Shown piece after piece: positions 2,788 through 22,930 of a DNA stretch of 51,857 bases. Both the position numbers and the translations under genes were made by a program. Origin of the DNA: a virus (Duplodnaviria > Heunggongvirae > Uroviricota > Caudoviricetes); the IMG/VR virus record IMGVR_UViG_2925891887_000006, positions 1 through 51,857 of that record; one strand, given 5' to 3'. A model generated the notes under the pieces. That model was not told where the DNA came from. It saw nothing but the letters and a program-made list of their open reading frames with translations, and ran no database searches. Each line of letters starts with the position of its first letter. Position 1 is the first letter of the stretch.

Positions 2788-3527
2788 ACTGCTTTCTCCT
2801 TCTCAGCAAGTTCCTGACGAACCTTTATTTTATGCATAGCTGCCGGAGAGAGTTGATTACTGAAATCCAGACGCGCCGCATAATCCGGGGCAACTCCCGC
2901 CAGTTTAAACACCGGGTCCTGTTCAGGCATCGCATCGTTAGCCAGAGCCGGTCTGGTGATATGTTTATGAATAAAGTCTTTCAGCACTGTGTCCGGGTCA
3001 TTAACTGAATTCACCACACCCACAACGGCACTGGCTTCCCGGCCCATTGTGGATTTAAGCAGGCTCAGCGTCTGAATAAGCGCTTTTCCATGCGACTGCA
3101 TAAAATCTTCCCAGATTTGTTTTGCGCGAATATCTACAAGGATGTTATGCGCGTGGATATACTTTCCGGCTAATTCCGCAGCTTTCTGCGGCAAAAGTGC
3201 ATTTTCGCTTTCCTGAGCCGCCAGCAGCTCATCAAAATCCTCAAGCGTTTCTCGTCCCAGCGCAATTTCCGTGCGCAGTTTTTTCATTTCCTTTGAGACC
3301 ACGCCCTGACTTTCACGAAACAGCGTGCGCCACTCCTCATTCAGTGTGTTCGTCGTGGCTTCCATTTCAGCGCGACGCTGGCGGATTGTCGCAATATTAT
3401 CCGCTGCCGCTTTCTGCTGACGACGTGCTTCAAGCCATGCGTTTCTGGCTGTGTTCATGGTTTCCAGTGCCCGCTGCGTTACAGCCGGAAAAGTGGAAAG
3501 GTTGTTATTCACTGCGGTGTTGTTCAT
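2784..3527 (-). CDS. sid: Sid-like capsid size-determination (external scaffold) protein
   Basis: 247 aa, coiled-coil-like; EEWRTLFRESQGVVS resembles P4 Sid as recalled; position upstream of psu. Confidence 0.5.
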   Translation of the reverse strand: MNNTAVNNNLSTFPAVTQRALETMNTARNAWLEARRQQKAAADNIATIRQRRAEMEATTNTLNEEWRTLFRESQGVVSKEMKKLRTEIALGRETLEDFDELLAAQESENALLPQKAAELAGKYIHAHNILVDIRAKQIWEDFMQSHGKALIQTLSLLKSTMGREASAVVGVVNSVNDPDTVLKDFIHKHITRPALANDAMPEQDPVFKLAGVAPDYAARLDFSNQLSPAAMHKIKVRQELAEKEKAV

Positions 3528-3706
3528 GACTTCTCCTGTCGGGGTGGTTAGTTACGTCAATTGTGTCGTGGCTGACACAAGCACACTATCGGTGCTCAGT
3601 GTGTGGTGGCTGGCACAACGGGCGCTTGCGGTTATTCCGACGTGGCTATGAAAGCCAGCCAGATAAAAATGCCCACTGTTTCAGTCTGCTTTATGTCCCT
3701 GATGCG

Positions 3707-3894
3707 GTGGAACAGGTGAAACATGTGTTACACCTTTGTTTTATAAAGCATTTATATACACTGCACCGGTGGAACATCGCGGGTAACAAGGTGGAACAGC
3801 GGATTGGCTGGCGTTACATCTGTTCCACCTCACTATTTCAGAAGGTGGAACAGGTTCAGCCCTGTAAAATACGGTTGTTCCACCTGTTTCACCT
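3707..3894. repeat. Alpha-binding octamer iteron cluster (crr/ori-like): GGTGGAACA / TGTTCCACC, at least 6 copies in both orientations
   Basis: Copies at 3707, 3768, 3790, 3844 (plus) and 3821, 3877, 3886 (minus, last one TGTTTCACC variant), immediately downstream of the alpha gene. Confidence 0.65.
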
Positions 3895-3927: not shown

Positions 3928-6600
3928 TTAACCCGGCACCTCGCTGTTGAAGACATAGAGCCTGCGGGGATTCATCTCTGGCGGGCGAATGGTTGTCTGG
4001 AGTTTGCCATCAGTGGAGGGCAGCAGGTATCCACGATCTGCGCACAGACGCGCCACCTTGCGCGGGTCAAATCCCCTGCAGATTTCTTTCCAGCCGGACG
4101 GCATGACATAGAACGTAGTGACAGCTTCCGTGCCCTGCGCGGTACTGCCTTTCTCCACCCTGCGCCAGCCCACCATATTGCCGGGGCGGTTGCGCTCGTC
4201 ATACCAGTCTGCAAAGCGGCTGTACTGATTCGCGGTAAAGAAACTGCGAACCTGCTCCAGTGCGGCGATATCTTCCTGATTGGCGGTGTGCCCGCGATCT
4301 TTCAGCCATGCGTTCAGGCAGACGCGGGTTGCCCGCAGTGCTTCACCCTCAGGCCAGCCGGTGATACCCAGACGGGTTGCCAGTTCACCTGCCATCGCCA
4401 CCAGTGCAAAGCGGTTCACAGCCCGTCCCACCTGATTGCCTGCATCTTTCGGAGTCAGGGCGGCAGCATATTCCTTCATCAGCGATTTTGCCTGTGCCGT
4501 TAGTCCGTTAAGATCAGCGGTCAGTGCTTTCAGCCACTCCCGGAACGGCGAACCGTAGTAGCAGGACGTGGCCCATTCAAGATGCTCTGCCAGAGCCTTG
4601 CCGCTGTCGAAGCCGTGCAGCTCCTCAAAAACGCCAAACTTCCCGGAATCGCTGGGGATCTGGATCATCCTGACTTCCATCCCGGCAAAAGTACGCTCAC
4701 CGGCCTTTGCCGCATGTTCGGTCAGAGACAATTCGCCAGTTGAAAAGAACAACAGGCGCCACTGCTTACGGGTACGCAGCTCACCGTCCGTACCGGCACG
4801 GCCCTTGCCCTGACCGTTTGCCAGCATGTAGGCGATATTGCCTGCCTCGCGTCCGTCAACTTCCCGGATCTCATCAAGCATCATGGCGGCATCGTTGCGG
4901 CGGCTGGCGCATCCCTCCAGCGCGTTGCCGGTGGCCCGCCATGTCTGCCAGTAGTCAGGCCCGCCGCAGACGGAGGTTGCCGCTTTCATGGTGGTAGTCT
5001 TACCGTCTGTCGATTCCCCTTTGAGGTGGTAGCCGCCGCCGTCCATACCCACCAGCCGTAACAGTGGTGCAGCAAAGGCCAGGCTGACAGCAAATGCCAC
5101 GCGGGAGTTGCCGGTACAGTAGCGGGATACATGCTCCCGCCATTCCTCTGTTGTGCCCGACACGCGGAAATCACGCCCCTGCACGGAAGTGGTCTGGAGA
5201 ATGACACCCTCTGCACCTTCACCGCTGACCTCATCCTGCAGGACGTAAACCTGACCATGCCAGCCAGTACGACTGACGCAGGTCACGCGGCGTTCCGGTT
5301 TACACAGTGAGATATATTCCATCAGGCGTGCGCGTGCCTCACCGGTGGTGCTGATATAAGACAGCCCGTTAACCAGCAGTACCCGGCGCAGTTCCTCACC
5401 ACTGCCGCTCAGCATTTCCATCGGCATCGCCCAGCGGCGACACTCACCCCACGTATCTTCCCATTCCAGCAGTCGTCCGAAGTTACCGCCATCGGCATCG
5501 CAGGTGATTGCCGTCACACGCAGCGGGCTGCATATTTTGACGTTCTGGATCTCCGTCTCACCGTTGCGCTGTACCTGCTTTTCATACCAGAGATATTCCT
5601 GGGTAAGACGGAACCCGTGCGGCAGTTGCGTGCGGCCTTCCCCGCACAGTACCAGACCGTTGCGAAAGGCTTCACGGGCACGGGTAATACCATGCTCCCG
5701 ATGAAAGTCATTCCAGTCAGCCTTAATCTCTCCTGGTGGCAGCGTCATCCAGCCGCCAACAGATTTTGCCGCCCGTTCAGCAAAGGCTCTGCCGGGATTC
5801 TCCCCCCCGTCCTGAAAATCGTTATCACCGGCGATGATAATTTTTACCTCAGGCCAGCGTGCCCGCAGCGACTGCGCCACATTGGGCAGATTGCCCGCAG
5901 ATATGGCAGCCACTACGCATCCGGCAGTGAGCTGGCTTACCGTCAGCGCCGTAGCGTAACCTTCGGTAATCACCACCTGTACCGGTGGTTCAGACGGTAA
6001 CGGGCTGAGCGACACAAACGCGCCTTTCATCGTGCTGCCGGGCAGTATGCTTTTTTCACCCGTCGGGGCGATAAGCTGTGCACCGGTCACGGCTCCGGTA
6101 TTGGTCGTGAGTGGTAACAGCAGGGAACCGGCAGGAAAATCCTTACCGCTGATATGCTGCACGCTTCCGGTCAGAGAGGCCGGGTATCCGGCGAACCCTT
6201 TTCCTGTCAGATAGGCGCTTTCTCCCGTGTGGCTCTCTTTCATCAGCGCCGCCACGGTAAGACCCATGTCGCGTTTAGGGGCTTTTTGTCTGGCAGGCTT
6301 AACAGGCAGTTCCTGCACATCCGGCACATTAAGCATCTGCGCCACCTCCTGCGCAGCCTTTCTGACGCTGTAACCGGTTACGAGCTTAACCAGATCCAGA
6401 CCGTCACCATTGCCACACTGGCTGCAGATCCACGTCCCGCGCCCGTCAAGGTCATCAAGGCGAAAACGATCCTTGCCCCCACATTTCGGGCAGGGACCGT
6501 GCCTGCCGTTTTCAGGTACATCAATACGCAGCATCTGCAGAATAACGGGCCATTTCCCCCGCGCGGCGGCTGAAATCTGCGTAACCGTCTGTATTGTCAT
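3928..6600 (-). CDS. P4 alpha-type primase/helicase (N-terminal zinc ribbon, primase, P-loop helicase)
   Basis: 890 aa; CPKCGG...CSQCG zinc-binding motif; GESTDGKTT Walker A. Confidence 0.9.
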   Translation of the reverse strand: MTIQTVTQISAAARGKWPVILQMLRIDVPENGRHGPCPKCGGKDRFRLDDLDGRGTWICSQCGNGDGLDLVKLVTGYSVRKAAQEVAQMLNVPDVQELPVKPARQKAPKRDMGLTVAALMKESHTGESAYLTGKGFAGYPASLTGSVQHISGKDFPAGSLLLPLTTNTGAVTGAQLIAPTGEKSILPGSTMKGAFVSLSPLPSEPPVQVVITEGYATALTVSQLTAGCVVAAISAGNLPNVAQSLRARWPEVKIIIAGDNDFQDGGENPGRAFAERAAKSVGGWMTLPPGEIKADWNDFHREHGITRAREAFRNGLVLCGEGRTQLPHGFRLTQEYLWYEKQVQRNGETEIQNVKICSPLRVTAITCDADGGNFGRLLEWEDTWGECRRWAMPMEMLSGSGEELRRVLLVNGLSYISTTGEARARLMEYISLCKPERRVTCVSRTGWHGQVYVLQDEVSGEGAEGVILQTTSVQGRDFRVSGTTEEWREHVSRYCTGNSRVAFAVSLAFAAPLLRLVGMDGGGYHLKGESTDGKTTTMKAATSVCGGPDYWQTWRATGNALEGCASRRNDAAMMLDEIREVDGREAGNIAYMLANGQGKGRAGTDGELRTRKQWRLLFFSTGELSLTEHAAKAGERTFAGMEVRMIQIPSDSGKFGVFEELHGFDSGKALAEHLEWATSCYYGSPFREWLKALTADLNGLTAQAKSLMKEYAAALTPKDAGNQVGRAVNRFALVAMAGELATRLGITGWPEGEALRATRVCLNAWLKDRGHTANQEDIAALEQVRSFFTANQYSRFADWYDERNRPGNMVGWRRVEKGSTAQGTEAVTTFYVMPSGWKEICRGFDPRKVARLCADRGYLLPSTDGKLQTTIRPPEMNPRRLYVFNSEVPG

Positions 6601-14892: not shown

Positions 14893-15569
14893 GCGGCGTT
14901 TTCCTTAATTTGATGAACATTATTGATGCCGTAGTAATCACAAACAGTGGCATCGACGAAAGAGAGATCGTTATCAATCTCATTGGAGCCAAACATTCCC
15001 ATTGGGGATTTAACAGTGTCTGCACCGTTGTTTTTTGTGGTGAAAAAGAACTGGTCATCACGGGTAAGGGTGCGAAGAACTATAGTAAACATGCCTTCGA
15101 CAGTGATTTTCTCGTCCAGCATTTTGCCGATAGTTTTCATTTTCACGCGCCCCATAGGGGTTTCTTCGGTGTGTGCAAGAAAATAGACTCTCAGGTCATC
15201 AGGTGCATCCTGTGCAGCCTTAATCACCTCCCATGCGTGGCGGCCTATCTCAGTAAATTTATCAAACGATTTTTCTTCTGAGCGGCGCATAAACTCATTG
15301 CTCATCACATACTGGAAGTCATCAACAATAACGATTCTTTTCCCGTATTCGTGAGCACGCTTAATTACGGCAACTATTACGTCCCATTTGTCAGTGGTAA
15401 CTACGGTTCCTTTTTTTGCTCTGGCATCCCATGCAAGCCAGTCTTTTGATTTAAATGGTAGCGGCTTGCCTATTGGTTTTATAAGTATTGCTTCCTCTGG
15501 ATTGATATTTCTCATGCTGGTTGATTTTCCGGTGCCAGATTCACCGAGTATTAATGTCGCAGTTCCCAT
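14889..15569 (-). CDS. Sak4-like RecA-fold ATPase (single-strand annealing/recombination)
   Basis: Walker A GESGTGKS near the N-terminus. Confidence 0.75.
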   Translation of the reverse strand: MGTATLILGESGTGKSTSMRNINPEEAILIKPIGKPLPFKSKDWLAWDARAKKGTVVTTDKWDVIVAVIKRAHEYGKRIVIVDDFQYVMSNEFMRRSEEKSFDKFTEIGRHAWEVIKAAQDAPDDLRVYFLAHTEETPMGRVKMKTIGKMLDEKITVEGMFTIVLRTLTRDDQFFFTTKNNGADTVKSPMGMFGSNEIDNDLSFVDATVCDYYGINNVHQIKENAA

Positions 15570-15577
15570 AATTTGCC

Positions 15578-15778
15578 TCAGAATGGTAATTCGGATGGGA
15601 CGGAAAGAAACTCGCGCTCATTCATTCGCTCTCTTTGAGCCTGCCATAAACAAAGTTGTTTCTTTGATTTATCTCCCGCTTTACGCCAGTAACGAGCCTC
15701 AGCAATGTGATATTCTCTTTTTAATCGACTTAATTCTGGAGTTTTCGCCAGTTCTACCGGAATCATTTTGACCTCCAT
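15578..15778 (-). CDS. Hypothetical protein
   Basis: 66-aa ORF. Confidence 0.4.
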   Translation of the reverse strand: MEVKMIPVELAKTPELSRLKREYHIAEARYWRKAGDKSKKQLCLWQAQRERMNEREFLSVPSELPF

Positions 15779-15868
15779 TTTCTGTAGGCTTCGATGGCCT
15801 CACGAAACATCTTTTCATCGCCAATAAAAGTGGCGATAGTGAATTTAGTCTGGATAGCCATAAGTGTT

Positions 15869-16009
15869 TTATCCATTTTTGGGAACTCCTGGCTGATTAA
15901 GTACGTCGATGAGTCGTTTCCATCCGTCACGTAATTTGCGGGTGATTCGTTCAAGTAAAGATTCGGAAGGGCAGCCAGCAACAGGCCACCCTGCAATGGC
16001 ATATTGCAT
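15869..16009 (-). CDS. Small hypothetical protein (46 aa, MQYAIAGWPV...)
   Basis: AAGGAG 7 nt upstream of the internal ATG; stop overlaps the next small ORF. Confidence 0.4.
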   Translation of the reverse strand: MQYAIAGWPVAGCPSESLLERITRKLRDGWKRLIDVLNQPGVPKNG

Positions 16010-16070
16010 GGTGTGCTCCTTATTTATACATAACGAAAACGCCTCGAGTGAAGCGTTATTGGTATGCATA

Positions 16071-16094
16071 TAAAAAGGCCCTCACACTGGAGGG
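16071..16094 (-). terminator. Intrinsic terminator inside the early-left operon
   Basis: GCCCTC-cagtgt-GAGGGC hairpin followed by CTTTTTAT on the minus strand. Confidence 0.55.
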
Positions 16095-16190
16095 CAAAGA
16101 AGATTTCCAATAATCAGAACAAGTCGGCTCCTGTTTAGTCACGAGCGACATTGCTCCGTGTATTCACTCGTTGGAATGAATACGCAGTGC

Positions 16191-16379
16191 TTATTCGTCA
16201 TGCATTTCAGGTAATTCTTCGTATTCGACGCCCCATACGAGTTTACACCAACTAACTCGCTCATATCTTTTACAGAAATCAGACCACATAACTTGTGTTC
16301 CATCATGGTTTGTTATTACTTCTGTAATATCACCAACACTAACAAAACTGGTATTAGAAGCAGTTATTTTTACTTTCAT
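16191..16379 (-). CDS. Hypothetical protein
   Basis: 62-aa ORF. Confidence 0.4.
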   Translation of the reverse strand: MKVKITASNTSFVSVGDITEVITNHDGTQVMWSDFCKRYERVSWCKLVWGVEYEELPEMHDE

Positions 16380-16675
16380 TATTCATCACCTATGGCTTTT
16401 TTGATAGCTTCGAGAGCCTTATTAACAGCTCCATACCATTCTGGATATGTTGTCTTTGTTCTATTTTTGGTTTGCTTAAGTAATAACTGAAGTGCTTCGA
16501 GAAGGTCAGGTGCTGCCGCTATTAGATTGGCATCTTCAATGCATTGAACTTCCTCACAGATTGCAATATACGAACGCCAGCCTGTGCCATTTTCAAGTGA
16601 GTCTGCCTGGATGATTTTAATCTCATCGCCATCCATCATTATTTCCCACTTACCTTCAGTACCTTTAAATTCCAT
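16379..16675 (-). CDS. Hypothetical protein
   Basis: 98-aa ORF. Confidence 0.5.
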   Translation of the reverse strand: MEFKGTEGKWEIMMDGDEIKIIQADSLENGTGWRSYIAICEEVQCIEDANLIAAAPDLLEALQLLLKQTKNRTKTTYPEWYGAVNKALEAIKKAIGDE

Positions 16676-16714
16676 GTTAGCCTCTGTTGTTTATGCCAAA
16701 AATAAAGGCCACCA

Positions 16715-16966
16715 TCAGGCAGCCTTGTTGTAAATGTTGCAGGTATCAAGTAAGTAATTAGATGGAGCGCCATAAATTATGAATTCATCGTTTGTCGGGT
16801 CCATCTCCATCTCTTGGCCTATTGCCATTCTTGCGTCAGTGTCATCAGAGGCGAAGCATAAAACAGCCCACGCACCCATTGTTTTAAAAAGAACTGCAAT
16901 TGGCTGTGGTTTTACTGAATTTGCGTTAGCGCGAAAATCACAAATCGCACTTTCATGAAACTCCAT
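16715..16966 (-). CDS. Hypothetical protein
   Basis: 83-aa ORF; hairpin plus T-run at its 3' end. Confidence 0.5.
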   Translation of the reverse strand: MEFHESAICDFRANANSVKPQPIAVLFKTMGAWAVLCFASDDTDARMAIGQEMEMDPTNDEFIIYGAPSNYLLDTCNIYNKAA

Positions 16967-17020
16967 ATATCACCTCAAATAAGTGGTTTGCTGCGAAAGT
17001 AAATACGCTTAAGTTACCTG

Positions 17021-17158
17021 TTATTTATCCCACCAAGTTCCGTATTTATCTATCCAGTTACACCAATCATCGACACTCCATTTTGTTGTGTCGCATTTTG
17101 GCAATTGGCATGAATATCTACCTTCTTTGTAAAGTCGGCGTTTGACTTTCTTGAGCAT
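17021..17158 (-). CDS. Small Cys/Trp-rich protein (45 aa)
   Basis: Hand-translated MLKKVKRRLYKEGRYSCQLPKCDTTKW... Confidence 0.35.
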   Translation of the reverse strand: MLKKVKRRLYKEGRYSCQLPKCDTTKWSVDDWCNWIDKYGTWWDK

Positions 17159-17343
17159 GACTACCTCAATCGTAATAAGCTAGAATTGATTTTCCGCGTT
17201 GCTTCTGGCGGCCTGAGCAGGTCACACCCATTTCACTGCGTGGCTTGCGGTAGTAAAGATTGTGCCTGTCTTTTAACCACATCAGGCTCGGTGGTTCTCG
17301 TGTACACCTACAGCGAGAAAAATAGTAAAATCCTCTCACCCCC

Positions 17344-17706
17344 TTATTTTGTCAGGGTGGTATCTCCTTCAGTTATGACCATTCGCCTTAATACTTTCCT
17401 TAAGTCGATGTAAAGTTGAAGGTCTCCATTTGCTGCGGCATCAGCCATTTTTTGCCTGACAAGCAGTAATGTTTCATACGGCTCAATAAGAATATCGTCA
17501 TGAGTAATTAGGTGAAGCGTTGCCGCATCAACTATTCCTAGAGCTGCGCCAAGTATCAAAAATTCCCTGCTATTTTTGTCGCATGAGGAGATAAGCGTAT
17601 TTAGCGCATACCTAATATTCTTTATAGCTGTTGTTAATGCTGCAATTTCTTCTATGGCGTCTTCTCCAATGAGCTTTTTAAGCTCATATTTTTCTTCCTG
17701 ACCCAT
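17344..17706 (-). CDS. Hypothetical early-left protein
   Basis: Start set at internal Met MGQEEKYE, with GAGG RBS, directly after the N-like gene stop. Confidence 0.5.
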   Translation of the reverse strand: MGQEEKYELKKLIGEDAIEEIAALTTAIKNIRYALNTLISSCDKNSREFLILGAALGIVDAATLHLITHDDILIEPYETLLLVRQKMADAAANGDLQLYIDLRKVLRRMVITEGDTTLTK

Positions 17707-17708
17707 AA

Positions 17709-17981
17709 TTACCTCGCCGTCAGTTGTTTTGATTTCCGGTAGCCTGCCGCGTAAATGGCTACGTTTGGCAGGCAAATACTTCCACTGCATTCATCTGCCT
17801 TCTTGCAGCGAAGGCTTCCGAGTGATGCTGCTTTATCTGCTCTGACGCAACCAGAGAGCTTTAGCTCAATTTTTCGCGCCAGTCGCTGCTCTTGCATTGC
17901 CTGTTCACGTTGAGCCTGTCTGCGTGCTCTGCGGCGATTTCTGGCGTTATCGTCAGCCAGATATGTAATGACTACTGTCAT
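17709..17981 (-). CDS. N-like antitermination protein (arginine-rich motif)
   Basis: NARNRRRARRQAQREQ near the N-terminus; first gene downstream of nutL. Confidence 0.55.
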   Translation of the reverse strand: MTVVITYLADDNARNRRRARRQAQREQAMQEQRLARKIELKLSGCVRADKAASLGSLRCKKADECSGSICLPNVAIYAAGYRKSKQLTAR

Positions 17982-18293
17982 GTTGACCTCCGATGAAACA
18001 ACTTTGGAATTTTTTTATTACAAAGTTGTTTCCTTCCCCGCCAATTAGACGGGGATGGAAGAGCATTTATGAGCCTTTATGGACTCTGCTCGATCAGTTC
18101 TATTTAATTAATCTCTCAATTGAATGTAAGTATTCACATAAATCCTCCTACCTCTTGTGCAGCTTTCTTGAATATGGTGGCGGCTGCACAACGCCTATGG
18201 AATTGACTTTGGCGGTGACGCGCCGGGTGCTTATCTTCCGGTTGCCGTCGTGCAGCTGCACTTCACGTCACCCCAAAGCCAACTACTCTTTGG

Positions 18294-18336
18294 TTCCCGC
18301 ATTTCGGCGGGACAATCCCATCAATGTTAAAGAGCC
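18294..18336 (-). promoter_or_regulatory. nutL (boxA GCTCTTTAACA plus boxB hairpin)
   Basis: boxB TCCCGCCGAAATGCGGGA on the minus strand matches the nutR hairpin; boxA-like element at 18325..18336. Confidence 0.65.
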
Positions 18337-18383
18337 TGCCAATCTTTTCCGTTTGGCTTCCAGCGTCCTGCTGATGGCTAAAG

Positions 18384-18424
18384 AATACTGTAGGTATTTT
18401 ATTGTGTAAATACCTAAGGTATTT
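18384..18424. promoter_or_regulatory. OL operator palindromes (PL region)
   Basis: AATACTGTAGGTATT and AAATACCTAAGGTATTT, same AATAC...GTATT half-sites as OR. Confidence 0.5.
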
Positions 18425-18555
18425 ATTTTTGATGAAATAATGATAAACAAATGAATACAAAGGATATTTATTTTTTTCGGTGTCTGCTTGTTCAGTGCTT
18501 TTTATGCGGGATAGGTGAAGTGGATCCCGATAGCTATTGCTGCCGGGATTATGGG

Positions 18556-18924
18556 TTAGTCAGCGAAGGTTAAGACGAGAATTACCTTAATGATGTCTGC
18601 TACAACAGACACGGCCATAGATAAACCAAAGACGATCCAAGCCATAGAGATGTCTTCACTACCATCGTATAGGGTTCCGTAATCACTGGTGTAAGGCGTA
18701 AATGTCGCGCCTTGATACAATAGGTATAAGCTTGATCCATAGAGGATAAATGCAGATATCCCTTGTATTGCTATGATCACTAGAATCATGAAACGAGCTG
18801 ATCTATGCGCCCAAGCCTGGCTTATTTTTTCTGATAGAGATTTCGCAATAAAAGCATGCGCTAAGCCGTAAATTGTTGAGATTGCCAACATCCCCAAAAA
18901 GCTTGCTATAGCGGTTCCAACCAT
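18556..18924 (-). CDS. Membrane protein (about 3 TM segments) co-transcribed downstream of cI (rex-like position)
   Basis: 122 aa with three long hydrophobic stretches; between cI and OL/PL. Confidence 0.6.
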   Translation of the reverse strand: MVGTAIASFLGMLAISTIYGLAHAFIAKSLSEKISQAWAHRSARFMILVIIAIQGISAFILYGSSLYLLYQGATFTPYTSDYGTLYDGSEDISMAWIVFGLSMAVSVVADIIKVILVLTFAD

Positions 18925-18942
18925 AAGCGCCCCCTTGCGTGA

Positions 18943-19659
18943 TCAAACCAGTCTGAGTTTTGTCTCAATTGCAACGCCTATAATCTTGCAGTTTCCATTG
19001 ATTGGCACGAGAGGCCATGCAGGATTAAGTCCCTTGAGGTATTTATTTCCGCCGTCGATTATCAGCTTCTTGAATGTTGCTTCGTTAGAGTCAGAAAGTT
19101 TTGCTATGACCAAGCTGCCGTTGATCGCCTCCCTTCCGGTATCGAAAAGAACGAATGTTCCCTCTGGAATGCTTAACCCAACCGGTGCCGTCATTGAATC
19201 ACCTTCCACTTTAAGCCAGAACGCATTACCTTGAATATGCGCGTCAGACTCAAGCCAAACATCTATGTCTTTAATGGTGTATGGTTCGCATGCTTCACAC
19301 CACGAGCCAGCCTGGATACTGCTTAACACCGGATACCTCTTTCCTGCTCTGTATTCCCCTGCATACCTTACGTTGGCATCGCTCTTAAGGCTTTCTGCCT
19401 GTTCTGCAACCTTGGCAGCAATTGACTGGCTAAAATCAGCAATTGAGACTTGCAACAATCGTGCAAAACCAGATGCAACCTCAACGTTTAGCGCATTTCT
19501 GCCATTAAGATAATGCCCTACCGCTCCTTGGGTGATACCCAGTTCATCAGCGATTGAGTATTGGGTTATTCCCAATTCTTTCTTTTTTGACTCATACAAA
19601 GCCTTAAGCCGCTTAGCGTCTTCCAGCTGTTCTGTCGTCAGTGATTTTTTATTTTCCAT
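18943..19659 (-). CDS. cI: CI-type repressor (HTH plus S24 LexA-like autopeptidase)
   Basis: N-terminal HTH; C-terminal GDSM and Lys of the Ser-Lys dyad. Confidence 0.9.
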   Translation of the reverse strand: MENKKSLTTEQLEDAKRLKALYESKKKELGITQYSIADELGITQGAVGHYLNGRNALNVEVASGFARLLQVSIADFSQSIAAKVAEQAESLKSDANVRYAGEYRAGKRYPVLSSIQAGSWCEACEPYTIKDIDVWLESDAHIQGNAFWLKVEGDSMTAPVGLSIPEGTFVLFDTGREAINGSLVIAKLSDSNEATFKKLIIDGGNKYLKGLNPAWPLVPINGNCKIIGVAIETKLRLV

Positions 19660-19694
19660 AGCTTAATTCTAATAGCTAAGGTACTTAAACTAAA

Positions 19695-19735
19695 AATACC
19701 CTGAGTATTGATTGCTTTGAATACCTGTAGTATTC
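19695..19735. promoter_or_regulatory. OR operator palindromes (PR/PRM region)
   Basis: AATACCCTGAGTATT and GAATACCTGTAGTATTC between divergent cI and cro. Confidence 0.55.
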
Positions 19736-19759
19736 TTTGTTCATGGTTAATAACGGAGA

Positions 19760-19960
19760 GTGCATATGATTCGAATGACACTTGCCGATTACGCCAAAAT
19801 CCATGGACAGGCTAAAGCAGCCAGTGACTTTGGTGTAATCCAGTGCGCTATCAGCAAGGCCATTCTGGCAGGCCGTAACATCATGGTTACGGTAAAGCCT
19901 GATGGCAGTGTGATTGGAGAGGAAGTTCGTCCTTTCCCAAGCAACAAGAAAAACAAATAG
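19760..19960 (+). CDS. cro: Cro repressor
   Basis: Strong similarity to lambda Cro as recalled (GQ.K.A.D.GV.Q.AI.KAI.AGR...DGSV..EEV.PFPSNKK). Confidence 0.85.
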
Positions 19961-19966
19961 TAACAC

Positions 19967-20011
19967 CGCTCTTTAACAGTCATGGTCCACATTCCCGCCG
20001 AAATGCGGGAA
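19967..20011 (+). promoter_or_regulatory. nutR (boxA CGCTCTTTAACA plus boxB hairpin)
   Basis: boxA at 19967..19978; boxB TTCCCGCCGAAATGCGGGAA at 19992..20011, directly after cro. Confidence 0.7.
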
Positions 20012-20068
20012 TACAACGCGCATAAGTTGATGCGCATAACTTCTTATTAGTTAAGGAAATACTTACAT

Positions 20069-20347
20069 ATGCAACTTACAAGTACTCGCAAGAAAGCGAA
20101 TGCAATTACAAGCAACATCCTGAATCGAATTGCTGTACGTGGTCAGCGAAAGGTTGCCGACGCGTTAGGGATTAATGAATCGCAAATTTCGCGATGGAAA
20201 GACAGCTTCATCCCAAAGATGGCCATGCTTCTGGCTGTGCTGGAGTGGGGTGTTGAAGACGAGGAATTAGCGGAGCTGGCAAAGAAAGTAGCCATGGTGC
20301 TGACAAAAGAAAAGCCTCAAGACTGCGGCAACAGTTTTGAGGCCTGA
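20069..20347 (+). CDS. cII: CII transcriptional activator
   Basis: Matches lambda CII as recalled (SQISRWK...IPK..MLLAVLEWGV). Confidence 0.85.
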   Translation: MQLTSTRKKANAITSNILNRIAVRGQRKVADALGINESQISRWKDSFIPKMAMLLAVLEWGVEDEELAELAKKVAMVLTKEKPQDCGNSFEA

Positions 20348-20381
20348 TGTAGAAAGACTGGATCAATCCACAGGAGTAATT

Positions 20382-20543
20382 ATGACAAAACGTCGTAAGA
20401 AATACCAGGAAAAAGAAGAGATTCGACACCCTGATTCACCTGAGGGATTAGTGGTAGCCGCAGCAAATAACAGGGCGTTCGCAGAGCGCCTTGTTGGTGT
20501 TTACAGACTAGCCAAAGCAGGAGTGAAACATGGGCGTCGTTAA
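20382..20543 (+). CDS. Small basic hypothetical protein
   Basis: Internal Met MTKRRKKYQEK of ORF 20337..20543. Confidence 0.35.
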   Translation: MTKRRKKYQEKEEIRHPDSPEGLVVAAANNRAFAERLVGVYRLAKAGVKHGRR

Positions 20544-21420
20544 GTTAGCTGATTACAGGCATAACCCTGTACAACATCAGGAGGCATCCAGTATGGGGTA
20601 TGTCTCTATACACCGCCAGTTTATGGACAGCAGGCTCTATAAGGACTCTCAGGCAGTACATCTTTGGCTTCACTTAATCCTCAAGGCTAATCACGAATCT
20701 ACTGTCGTCAATACGGATATCGGTCCGATAACTGTTGATCGCGGTCAGATGATAACTGGACGCCCGTCGCTGGTCAGAGAAACATTCATCCCCGACAACA
20801 AAGTTCGGAGCTTATTACGGACTTTTGAGTCGAAAGGGATGCTTAATATTTGCTCGATGGGGAAGAAATTTAGCCTGTTTACAATCGTTAAATATGACGA
20901 TTTTCAGGCAAAAAATTGTCCAACGGTTGTCCAACGGTTGTCCAACGCAAACACCAGTAATGGCGCGGCTCTCAGCGGAGATTGTCCAACGGTTGTCCAA
21001 CGGTTGTCCATAAACAATAATATAAATAATATCTCTAATACTGACGTATTAGAGAGTGCCACAGCAGACAAAAAGTCTGACAAGAAAAAACCTTCCGTTA
21101 GCTGTCAGGATGTTGTCGATGCTTACCACGAAATCCTTCCTGAAGCGCCAAGAATCCGCGCACTGAATGACAAGCGTAAAAACCAGATCCGAACGTTCTG
21201 GCGCAAAGCCGGAGTGATAACCCGCCAGCTTGACGGGCATGGGTTCACAATGCAGGACTGGAGAAATTATTTGAGCTACGTAGGCGAAAATTGCCGATGG
21301 ATGTTCGAAGAGCGTCCAAACCATCAACGCGGAACTGTCTGGCACAAAAAGGGATTTGATTTCCTGCTTAACGATAATACCTACCTGAAAGTTCGTGAGG
21401 GTGAACACGATGACCGATAA
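20530..21420 (+). CDS. Replication initiator (lambda O / P22 gp18-like) with ori iterons inside the gene
   Basis: 296 aa; internal peptide repeat NCPTVVQRLS reflects the DNA iterons; followed by a helicase gene. Confidence 0.8.
   Translation: MGVVKLADYRHNPVQHQEASSMGYVSIHRQFMDSRLYKDSQAVHLWLHLILKANHESTVVNTDIGPITVDRGQMITGRPSLVRETFIPDNKVRSLLRTFESKGMLNICSMGKKFSLFTIVKYDDFQAKNCPTVVQRLSNANTSNGAALSGDCPTVVQRLSINNNINNISNTDVLESATADKKSDKKKPSVSCQDVVDAYHEILPEAPRIRALNDKRKNQIRTFWRKAGVITRQLDGHGFTMQDWRNYLSYVGENCRWMFEERPNHQRGTVWHKKGFDFLLNDNTYLKVREGEHDDR
20916..21014 (+). repeat. Origin iterons: TTGTCCAACGG x3, spacer, x3, then AT-rich tract
   Basis: Copies at 20916, 20927, 20938, 20982, 20993, 21004, followed by ATAAACAATAATATAAATAATAT. 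Confidence 0.75.
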
Positions 21421-22846: not shown

Positions 22847-22876
22847 TGACCATCTACATCACTGAGCTAATAACAG

Positions 22877-22903
22877 GGGCTATTTACACAGTAGCCCTTT
22901 TTT
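22877..22903 (+). terminator. Intrinsic terminator after the replication module
   Basis: GGGCTA-9 nt-TAGCCC followed by TTTTTT. Confidence 0.6.
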
Positions 22904-22930
22904 ATTGGATTAAGAACGAGGGGGATCCTG

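Follow-up and report, generated by a model that had tools for sequence, protein, structure and literature searches.

A predicted HK620-type N/nut antitermination module in the early region of a P22-like Escherichia coli prophage

In a P22-like (Lederbergvirus-like) prophage of Escherichia coli, the early region described here very probably encodes a canonical lambdoid module for processive N/nut antitermination, with the specificity type of HK620. The window, i.e. the whole stretch of 51,857 nucleotides that was analysed, consists of the prophage and host flank, with no phage matches before about 10.9 kb. What was observed directly is the set of sequence elements with their homology and synteny, and the inheritance of the N protein ARM together with the boxB hairpin. 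The region and the immunity region of phage HK620 (AF335538 = NC_002730) are 97.9% identical, and the HK620 GenBank record annotates N, nutL, nutR, pL, pR, tL2A-D, tR1 and tR2 at the corresponding places and itself words the nut sites as 'putative'. Because the module is essentially identical to the annotated HK620 one, it is real, not new; the preliminary description of this DNA had presented the system as newly noticed, and in this it was preceded by the HK620 record, where N, nutL and nutR are already named. A full-text literature search, whose coverage did not extend to the HK620 genome paper, returned no paper in which HK620-type N or nut had been tested. The following features make up the module and its surroundings.

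18382..18410, minus strand: early leftward promoter pL (TTTACA-17-TATTCT), from a promoter scan; HK620 pL (L001 3915-3950) maps to ~18375-18410 by alignment coordinates.
18325..18335, minus strand: nutL boxA core GCUCUUUAACA, preceded by G to give GGCUCUUUAACA; motif search; inside the HK620-annotated nutL.
18295..18312, minus strand: nutL boxB hairpin UCCCGC-CGAAAU-GCGGGA, with a 6-bp stem and a 6-nt loop; repeat search and fold; invariant in the IMG/VR loci examined.
18205..18280, minus strand: long N-leader stem GGCUUUGGGGUGACG...CGUCACCGCCAAAGUC; leader fold, z = -5.7.
17997..18201, minus strand: structured cassette, an insertion of ~205 nt in the N leader that HK620 and mEpX2 lack.
17709..17981, minus strand: N gene, 90 aa, with the ARM at about residues 12-28 (NARNRRRARRQAQREQA) and a Shine-Dalgarno sequence GGAGG at 17987-17991; Pfam and phrog profile matches.
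17344..17706, minus strand: hkaQ-like gene directly after N; phrog_7374 and HK620 annotation.
17166..17262, minus strand: remnant of an alternative N C-terminus (..YYRKPRSEMGVTCSGRQKQRGKSILAYYD), matched to positions 126-172 of phrog_271.
16695..16726, minus strand: first intrinsic-terminator-like hairpin and T tract past N in the pL operon; consensus scan (hairpin 16726->16705), at the end of the 16715-16966 gene.
16028..16095, minus strand: pair of tandem sites resembling intrinsic terminators, located upstream of cIII and equivalent to HK620 tL2A/tL2B; consensus scan (16078-16095 with a T tract, and 16038-16057).
18943..19659, minus strand: cI repressor (HTH_3 and Peptidase_S24); Pfam and HK620 annotation.
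19766..19960, plus strand: cro; Pfam Cro, 91 bits, and HK620 annotation.
19968..19978, plus strand: nutR boxA core GCUCUUUAACA, preceded by C to give CGCUCUUUAACA; motif search; inside the HK620-annotated nutR.
19993..20010, plus strand: nutR boxB hairpin, its 18-nt core identical to that of nutL and its stem lengthened by two A-U pairs (19991-20012); repeat search and fold.
22875..22909, plus strand: strong site resembling an intrinsic terminator, located past the DnaB-like P gene where HK620 has tR2, and the putative barrier before the nin/Q region; consensus scan.

All of the sequence-level features of a lambdoid N/nut system were found. On the left, pL is followed by nutL (18295-18335) and then by N, the first gene of the pL operon; on the right, nutR (19968-20010) lies between the end of cro and the start of cII at 20069. 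Read in the sense of its transcript, each nut site consists of boxA, a short spacer and boxB, and the left and right sites share one boxB sequence. Both sites have the boxA core GCTCTTTAACA, oriented along the early leftward or rightward transcript, as had been claimed for a boxA-like element before each hairpin, while the 12-mer CGCTCTTTAACA given for that element is exact at nutR only, nutL reading GGCTCTTTAACA. As read in the nascent RNA, boxA GCUCUUUAACA matches the rrn consensus core. The 11-mer by itself is not rare, since 30 of 100 shuffled sequences gave at least two matches at no more than one mismatch. The spacer between boxA and boxB is 12 nt at nutL and 14 nt at nutR, and these distances are kept in 100/100 L-type and 99 R-type IMG/VR copies, respectively. 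The placement of nutR directly after cro was also borne out, with boxA beginning 7 nt past the cro stop codon (19960).

In a search of the whole window, the 19-mer TCCCGCCGAAATGCGGGAA that contains boxB had exactly two copies, at 18294-18312 on the minus strand and 19993-20011 on the plus strand, and no third copy at up to three mismatches; none of 100 shuffled windows had two matches. The same 19-nt hairpin had been reported twice, and both exact copies are confirmed, but the plus-strand start given as 19992 includes one extra T, which pairs with A20011, so that the 19-mer itself starts at 19993. RNA folding of both sites, proposed as a check in the preliminary description, gave the predicted hairpin at nutL (6 bp, 6-nt loop, -10.5 kcal/mol, z = -2.7) and at nutR (8 bp, 6-nt loop, -12.5 kcal/mol, z = -4.8). 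No base-pair covariation was found in boxB, whose 18-nt core is unchanged in ~200 IMG/VR copies; the sole variation in the boxB region among them is one flanking base in the nutR stem extension. Since boxB is invariant in every relative, covariation does not provide independent support for the hairpin. An Rfam scan of 15500-21000 at E <= 1 matched only the lambda cIII thermoregulator (15964-16022) and no nut, boxB or put family.

CGAAAU is unlike the boxB loops of lambda (GAAAA and GAAGA), P22 (GACAA) and phage 21 (CUAACC). With its 6-nt loop on a 6-bp stem, the hairpin falls outside the lambda/P22 class of boxB, which has a Watson-Crick-closed GNRNA pentaloop on a 5-bp stem. Its geometry of 6 bp and 6 nt agrees with the phage 21 class, but the loops are alike at only three of the six positions and the stems have different sequences. 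Conceivably, the GAAA inside CGAAAU folds as a tetraloop with a C-U mismatch as its closing pair.

As had been described, nutL lies upstream of a leftward arginine-rich 90-aa gene, the minus-strand ORF 17709-17981 carrying NARNRRRARRQAQREQ. Its product belongs to the lambdoid N family, with 58.4 bits to Pfam PF25694 N_peptide over residues 11-90 (cut-off 27.9) and E = 4.8e-34 to phrog_271, and is 96.7-98.9% identical to the N proteins of HK630, HK140 and JEP4 and 97% identical to that of HK620. The protein is a mosaic, with a central segment almost as in phage 21 N (55% identity over residues 1-64, with residues 33-62 nearly identical) and a C-terminal segment like that of 933W N (95% identity over residues 69-90; 52% to P22 gp24 over residues 39-90). 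The proposed alignment of the ARM was likewise productive: the core NARNRRRARR aligns with the block A-x-[TSN]-R-[RY]-x-x-R-R common to lambda, P22, phage 21 and 933W N. By sequence homology to characterized N proteins, the central region is a candidate NusA-binding region and the C-terminal region a candidate RNA-polymerase-binding region. For H-19B N, experiments have established roles for the ARM (12-RSRRRER-18) and for the RNA-polymerase-binding domain at the C-terminus (PMC3526286). The same string RSRRRER is also found in 933W N. A sequence search of the PDB with N matched no N-protein entry; a match to RNF168 at E = 0.55 was spurious. The C-terminus of the downstream remnant (YYRKPRSEMGVTCSGRQKQRGKSILAYYD) is fused to the present ARM in 101-aa N variants of IMG/VR.

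The N leader differs among relatives. Its long stem has seven pairs with compensatory changes across five leader types and has the same sequence at its base as the N-leader stem of lambda, where a separate fold of the lambda leader also predicted this base. The inserted cassette includes a start-stop element, AGGAGG-N5-AUGUGA, and its 3' hairpin (17995-18032) adjoins the ribosome-binding site of N. It is 99% identical in CUS-3, where it is annotated as 'bsq5 boundary sequence', and 70% identical in HK140, and the insertion is also present in 22 IMG/VR loci. This insertion may change the expression of N.

Terminator-like sites lie downstream of nut in both early operons; as consensus matches, they have a putative function. 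The two sites named in the preliminary description of the leftward operon were both recovered by the consensus scan, each with a T tract (16095->16078 and 16726->16705). The tandem sites were placed via alignment coordinates at HK620 tL2A/tL2B (L001 2327-2354 and 2295-2316), with 16095->16078 falling on tL2A, and the site at 16695..16726 sits in a segment (16191-17262) that is absent from HK620.

The specificity of the pair was approached through relatives. Relatives of N were counted in 503 IMG/VR stretches; the exact boxB sequence is on no fewer than 118 contigs, 87 of which have a divergent L and R pair. The spacing of the pair ranges from 1152 to 2990 bp, so different immunity regions are bracketed. 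When loci were selected by boxB, an N gene of the NARNRRRARR type was found downstream at 96/96 L-type sites with enough flanking DNA, and this ARM was fused to at least four different N C-termini. Fourteen L-type loci at one point thought to be without N were resolved by a wider search into ten with longer leader insertions and four cut by contig ends. When loci were selected by N, boxB was present at nutL in 77 and at nutR in 74 of 80. ARM type and boxB type are thus inherited together across several N C-termini and immunity regions, with three exceptions. L159 has a lambda-type N with lambda nutL/nutR, and this N gene lies downstream of it as an additional N, with no cognate boxB within 7 kb; L153 probably has the same orphan arrangement; and in L161 an IS element interrupts the locus at a contig end. 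A natural swap is seen in HK629, where the C-terminal 54 residues of N are 96% identical to those of the window N but the ARM and the boxBs are those of phage 21. Because ARM and boxB stay together whatever the N C-terminus or immunity region, and given the HK629 swap, a distinct N/boxB specificity is supported at the level of sequence. The same suggestion in the preliminary description thus gains support from the co-inheritance, the swap and a loop unlike those of lambda, P22 and phage 21.

N peptide-RNA complexes have been solved structurally for the lambda, P22 and phage 21 classes. We tentatively suggest, with somewhat less than even confidence, that the HK620-type pair (NARNRRRARRQAQREQA with UCCCGC-CGAAAU-GCGGGA) represents a recognition mode apart from these three, possibly a C-U-closed GAAA tetraloop read without the Trp stacking of lambda N.

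By homology to lambda, P22, phage 21 and H-19B, we infer the following binding events and terminator readthrough. Upon loss of the repressor, RNA polymerase would start at pL and pR and transcribe nutL and nutR. In the nascent RNA, boxA GCUCUUUAACA would recruit NusB/NusE, and boxB (stem UCCCGC/GCGGGA, loop CGAAAU) would be bound by the N-terminal ARM of the 90-aa N, whose phage 21-like central part and 933W-like C-terminal part are expected to contact NusA and RNA polymerase. The polymerase so modified would pass the terminators of the pL operon (16705-16726; tL2A/B, 16038-16095) and, on the right, continue past tR1 and the strong terminator at 22875-22899 in the direction of the nin/Q region.

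One alternative is that the module is decayed in a defective prophage, its elements being relics of an antitermination system that no longer operates. The window, with its host flank and phage matches only from ~10.9 kb, would suit such a history, as would the 205-nt leader insertion relative to HK620, the truncated second N C-terminus downstream and the missing tL1 and hkaP segment. However, N is intact and nearly identical to the N proteins of JEP4, HK140, HK630 and HK620, both nut sites are the consensus of more than 100 relatives, the leader insertion recurs in phage CUS-3 and the 22 IMG/VR loci, and cI, cro, cII, O and P are full length; we therefore regard decay as unlikely.

Less probable still are two readings that question the partnership of N and boxB. 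The protein could be an exclusion factor like HK022 Nun, binding boxB RNA of competitor phages and arresting their transcription without antitermination of its own genome. Nun is encoded at the genome position of N and, like N, has an ARM at its N-terminus (PMC4124055), and the second N copy of L159, which has no cognate boxB and whose phage relies on lambda N/nut, would suit a role in trans. Yet the cognate boxB lies in the phage's own nutL and nutR and accompanies the ARM in nearly all relatives, homology to N of phage 21, 933W and P22 is seen in the central and C-terminal parts, and both early operons contain terminator-like barriers of the kind overcome by antiterminators. Judged on its nut sites, the locus does not fit the HK022 Nun-type class, for which the ARM would be directed at the boxB of another phage and cognate nut sites would be missing from the phage itself. 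It is equally improbable that the hairpins are terminators, RNA-stability elements or DNA-level protein sites duplicated through the symmetry of the immunity region. The unobtainable boxB covariation leaves room for this, as does the position of nutR at lambda's Rho-dependent tR1 region, HK620 annotating tR1 directly past nutR. But neither hairpin is followed by a T tract or was flagged by the terminator scan; both have the same RNA sense relative to their promoters, with boxA at a fixed distance before them; and the hairpin tracks the type of ARM, not of repressor or operator, the same pair bracketing immunity regions of 1.15-2.99 kb.

The N/nut module is thus a textbook lambdoid early antitermination switch and, annotated in this exact version in the HK620 record, is already known. 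It carries little weight as a discovery, and its remaining value is comparative: it offers a clean natural case of an RNA-binding peptide and a hairpin inherited as a module across mosaic N proteins and immunity regions, and E. coli prophages commonly carry this N/boxB specificity, as the counts of N relatives and boxB contigs given above indicate. Should the distinct recognition mode be true, the pair would be functionally orthogonal to those of lambda, P22 and phage 21, providing a natural and very widespread fourth orthogonal tethering pair and a further data point on the co-evolution of ARM peptide and hairpin through module exchange.

The closest known system is that of HK620, which has an identical boxA-spacer-boxB at both nut sites, a 90-aa N, the same arrangement of cI, cro, cII, pL and pR, and tL2A/B and tR2 in the same positions. 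Unlike HK620, the window has the 205-nt N-leader cassette (also in CUS-3 and HK140) and lacks the hkaP and tL1 segment, in place of which it has 1.07 kb of other small genes (16191-17262). The same N/nut module is also found in HK630, HK140, CUS-3, JEP4 and IME10. Phage 21, whose N/nut sequences were taken from the phage DE3 and HK629 records, is nearly identical in N residues 33-62 and likewise has the consensus boxA GCUCUUUAACA, spacers that resemble those of the window (AUCGACGGACU versus AUUGAUGGGAUUG) and a boxB whose stem is 6 bp and whose loop is 6 nt. It differs in the ARM (GTAKSRYKARRAELIAERR versus DDNARNRRRARRQAQREQA), in its boxBs (CUCAAC-CUAACC-GUUGAG and UCACCU-CUAACC-GGGUGA) and in the C-terminus of N, which is lambda-like in phage 21 but 933W/P22-like in the window. 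In lambda, the ARM core AQTRRRERRAEKQAQ resembles ARNRRRARRQAQ here, the boxB loops GAAAA and GAAGA recall the GAAA inside CGAAAU, and the N-leader stem has the same base, GGCUUUGGGGUG...CACC.CCAAAG; lambda differs in having a 5-bp boxB stem with a pentaloop and a weaker boxA, CGCUCUUA, and the window N has no equivalent of Trp18 and no significant similarity to lambda N over the whole protein (E = 0.09). P22 gp24 and H-19B/933W N differ in their ARMs and in a pentaloop boxB (GCGCUGACAAAGCGC), and 933W N is 127 aa long, but they share with the window N the C-terminal module ..G.(I/V)CLPNVAIYAAGYRKSKQLTAR. The RNA-polymerase-binding domain of H-19B N is made up of its last 27 residues (PMC3526286).

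The predicted N-type antitermination system lies in the immunity region of a P22-like prophage, in which cI, cro and cII are followed by an O-like gene and then by P, which is DnaB-like. Homology to phages does not start before ~10.9 kb of the window, and P22-like head genes are found farther right. Segment 17300-20400 is 97.9% identical to coliphages HK620 (AF335538) and HK630 over 93% of its length. The HK620 record annotates a 90-aa "antitermination protein N", the sites "nutL; putative N-utilization leftward" and "nutR; putative N-utilization rightward", and pL, pR, OL1-3/OR1-3, tR1, tL1, tL2A-D and tR2. Pairwise alignment places its nutL (record coordinates 3835-3876) at 18295-18336 and its nutR (5505-5550) at ~19967-20012, so mapped, the two nut sites of the preliminary description coincide exactly with the annotated ones. 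The terminator that it had placed at 16071-16094 is HK620 tL2A, according to a terminator scan and alignment mapping.

Features of the region (window coordinates; strand where assigned)
16095->16038, minus: tL2A and tL2B, just upstream of cIII (tL2B hairpin, 16038-16057); terminator scan
16379-16675: phrog_1273 gene, in the 16191-17262 segment
16715-16966: phrog_2471 gene, same segment
16726->16705, minus: terminator-like site, in the 1.07-kb segment that HK620 is without; scan
17021-17158: DUF5484 gene, same segment
17709-17981, minus: N, 90-aa ORF with NARNRRRARRQAQREQ; ORF call
17987-17991, minus: N Shine-Dalgarno GGAGG
17997-18201, minus: structured leader cassette, ~205 nt, between nutL and N; absent from HK620 and mEpX2
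18205-18280, minus: long leader stem GGCUUUGGGGUGACG...CGUCACCGCCAAAGUC, part common to relatives; folding
18294-18312, minus: boxB 19-mer TCCCGCCGAAATGCGGGAA, left copy; sequence scan
18325-18335, minus: boxA core GCTCTTTAACA of nutL; sequence scan
18943-19659, minus: cI; gene order
19766-19960, plus: cro; gene order
19968-19978, plus: boxA core GCTCTTTAACA of nutR; sequence scan
19993-20011, plus: boxB 19-mer TCCCGCCGAAATGCGGGAA, right copy; sequence scan
20069-20347, plus: cII; gene order
22875-22899, plus: terminator-like site following P, where HK620 has tR2; scan

The tL1 and hkaP segment of HK620 is missing from the window, where a 1.07-kb segment of small genes (16191-17262) takes its place. 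A predicted 122-aa membrane protein (18556-18924, minus strand; phrog_6534), homologous to HK620 hkaS, is encoded between cI and pL, the slot of lambda rexAB. At the start of the cIII-like gene, the Rfam cIII thermoregulator element Lambda_thermo matches in full length at 15964-16022 on the minus strand (88.5 bits; gathering score, 50).

The arginine-rich 90-aa ORF was found as described, and its product matches Pfam N_peptide (PF25694; 58.4 bits against a gathering score of 27.9) and phrog_271, "anti-termination protein N-like" (E = 5e-34). By sequence, this N is a mosaic of three parts. Residues 1-32 form a private arginine-rich motif (ARM), residues 33-62 are nearly identical to phage 21 N (55% identity over residues 1-64, E = 3e-20), and residues 69-90 match the 933W N C-terminus at 95% identity; identity to P22 gp24 is 52% over residues 39-90. 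In a multiple alignment the ARM core ARNRRRARR shares columns with those of lambda (AQTRRRERR), P22 (AKTRRHERR), phage 21 (AKSRYKARR) and 933W (SRSRRRERL). In H-19B N, the ARM is experimentally required for antitermination and the RNA-polymerase-binding domain has been shown to be the last 27 residues (PMC3526286); the H-19B motif given there, RSRRRER, occurs also in 933W N. Downstream of N and an hkaQ-like gene, the window retains a vestigial alternative N C-terminus (YYRKPRSEMGVTCSGRQKQRGKSILAYYD; 17166-17262, minus strand). Because this type of C-terminus is joined to the HK620-type ARM in intact 101-aa N proteins in IMG/VR, the arrangement suggests that an insertion into an older N gene brought in the present N 3' end and hkaQ.

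Even with up to three mismatches tolerated, the 51.9-kb window has just two copies of the 19-mer TCCCGCCGAAATGCGGGAA, and none of 100 shuffles contained two, which bears out the identical hairpins on the two strands. Folded as RNA, each site gives the stem UCCCGC/GCGGGA (6 bp) and the loop CGAAAU, the nutR stem being longer by two A-U pairs (nutR, -12.5 kcal/mol, z = -4.8; nutL, -10.5 kcal/mol, z = -2.7). No T tract follows either hairpin. The boxA-like element said to precede each hairpin was recovered at both as a core, with CGCTCTTTAACA exact only on the right and GGCTCTTTAACA on the left. The bare 11-mer is not statistically unusual, since two or more matches, with one mismatch allowed, turned up in 30 of 100 shuffles; the telling point is its position, 12 nt (left) or 14 nt (right) upstream of the hairpin and on that hairpin's strand. 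This core, GCUCUUUAACA, is present also in P22 and phage 21, and it matches the rrn consensus. NusB:NusE binds rrn boxA ~10-fold more tightly than lambda boxA (PMC2800207).

The proposal of a distinct N/boxB specificity was examined in both directions, by selecting loci on boxB and on N. An exact-match IMG/VR scan found boxB in at least 118 contigs. Among the matches listed, 87 contigs carry a divergent left/right pair; the spacing within pairs runs from 1152 to 2990 bp, so several different repressor/cro modules are flanked by the same nut pair. All 96 left-type sites with enough downstream DNA among these matches lead to an N with a NARNRRRARR-type ARM (at most one substitution), joined to at least four C-terminal modules in proteins of 86 to 101 aa. 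Conversely, the best 80 of 503 IMG/VR relatives selected by N carry boxB at nutL in 77 cases and at nutR in 74, and the 18-nt boxB core does not vary among them. HK629 is a natural ARM swap: its N agrees with the window's N over the C-terminal 54 residues (96% identity) and has a phage 21-type ARM, and its boxBs are of phage 21 type (nutL CUCAAC-CUAACC-GUUGAG, nutR UCACCU-CUAACA-GGGUGA). The exceptions are informative. In locus L161 an IS3-family element interrupts the leader, and the contig stops within the IS; L159 (IMGVR_UViG_2595698474_000001) and probably L153 pair a lambda-type N with nutL and nutR of lambda, and farther downstream they have a second N gene, of HK620 type, that lacks a cognate boxB within 7 kb. 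In L159, with tandem N genes at 2016-2348 and 3501-3773, an intact HK620-type N lies as an orphan ~1.15 kb downstream of the 110-aa lambda-type N. Given the co-occurrence both ways, the HK629 swap and the differing loop, a separate specificity for the HK620-type pair is well supported by comparison.

In HK620 and mEpX2, 107 nt separate boxB from the N AUG; here the leader measures 313 nt, owing to a 205-nt insertion at 17997-18201 (minus strand). The leader as a whole is strongly structured (z = -5.7). Its 18205-18280 stem has compensatory changes at seven pairs among five leader types compared, and a stem sharing this base sequence is predicted in the lambda N leader. The lambda stem is an RNase III-processed element controlling N translation. 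The cassette, found in 22 IMG/VR loci (for example, L003, L090, L104, L019 and L105), CUS-3 and HK140, exists as two variants ~70% identical and as mosaics of both. The cassette keeps a start-stop AGGAGG-N5-AUGUGA, a G+C-rich hairpin (CCCCGTCTAATTGGCGGGG versus GCCCCTCAGTTCGAGGGGC, pairing still possible) and a 3' hairpin (17995-18032) adjoining the N ribosome-binding site. It may modulate the translation of N, and its sole annotation in CUS-3 is 'bsq5 boundary sequence'. Other inserts at the same place are a 39-aa hydrophobic ORF (MLDIMTNPILGGLVTTFAICFGF...), an HNH/AP2-like ORF and an IS3-family element, and another, of 251 nt, lies directly 3' of boxB; leader lengths range from 107 to 618 nt (IMG/VR loci including L008, L056, L086, L161, L020 and L103). 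The nutL-to-N leader is thus an insertion hot spot.

By homology, the mechanism would be the standard lambdoid one, for which we infer every binding and readthrough step. NusB/NusE would bind boxA, the ARM would contact boxB, and the central and C-terminal parts of N would engage NusA and RNA polymerase. Polymerase so modified would then read through the sites at 16726->16705 and tL2A/tL2B (16095->16038) on the minus strand and 22875-22899 on the plus strand.

Our literature search found no biochemical or structural study of the very common HK620-type N/boxB specificity. As the preliminary description held, the loop CGAAAU differs from those of lambda (GAAGA/GAAAA) and P22 (GACAA, shared with 933W), all on 5-bp stems. 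The 933W nutL (2954-3020 of the 933W locus L124) has a boxB (GCGCUGACAAAGCGC) identical to that of the P22 nutL (3161-3194 of the P22 locus L123), despite N proteins that differ in length and much of their sequence. Phage 21, with the loop CUAACC, is closest in geometry (6-bp stem, 6-nt loop), boxA and spacers. The present boxB falls outside the lambda/P22 pentaloop class and would share only geometry with the phage 21 hexaloop class. All the sequence-level defining features of lambdoid N/nut systems that we examined are present, and the system belongs to that family. Its specificity type is common to HK620, HK630, HK140, CUS-3, JEP4 and IME10, and the module is already known, because its features are annotated in the public record of HK620.
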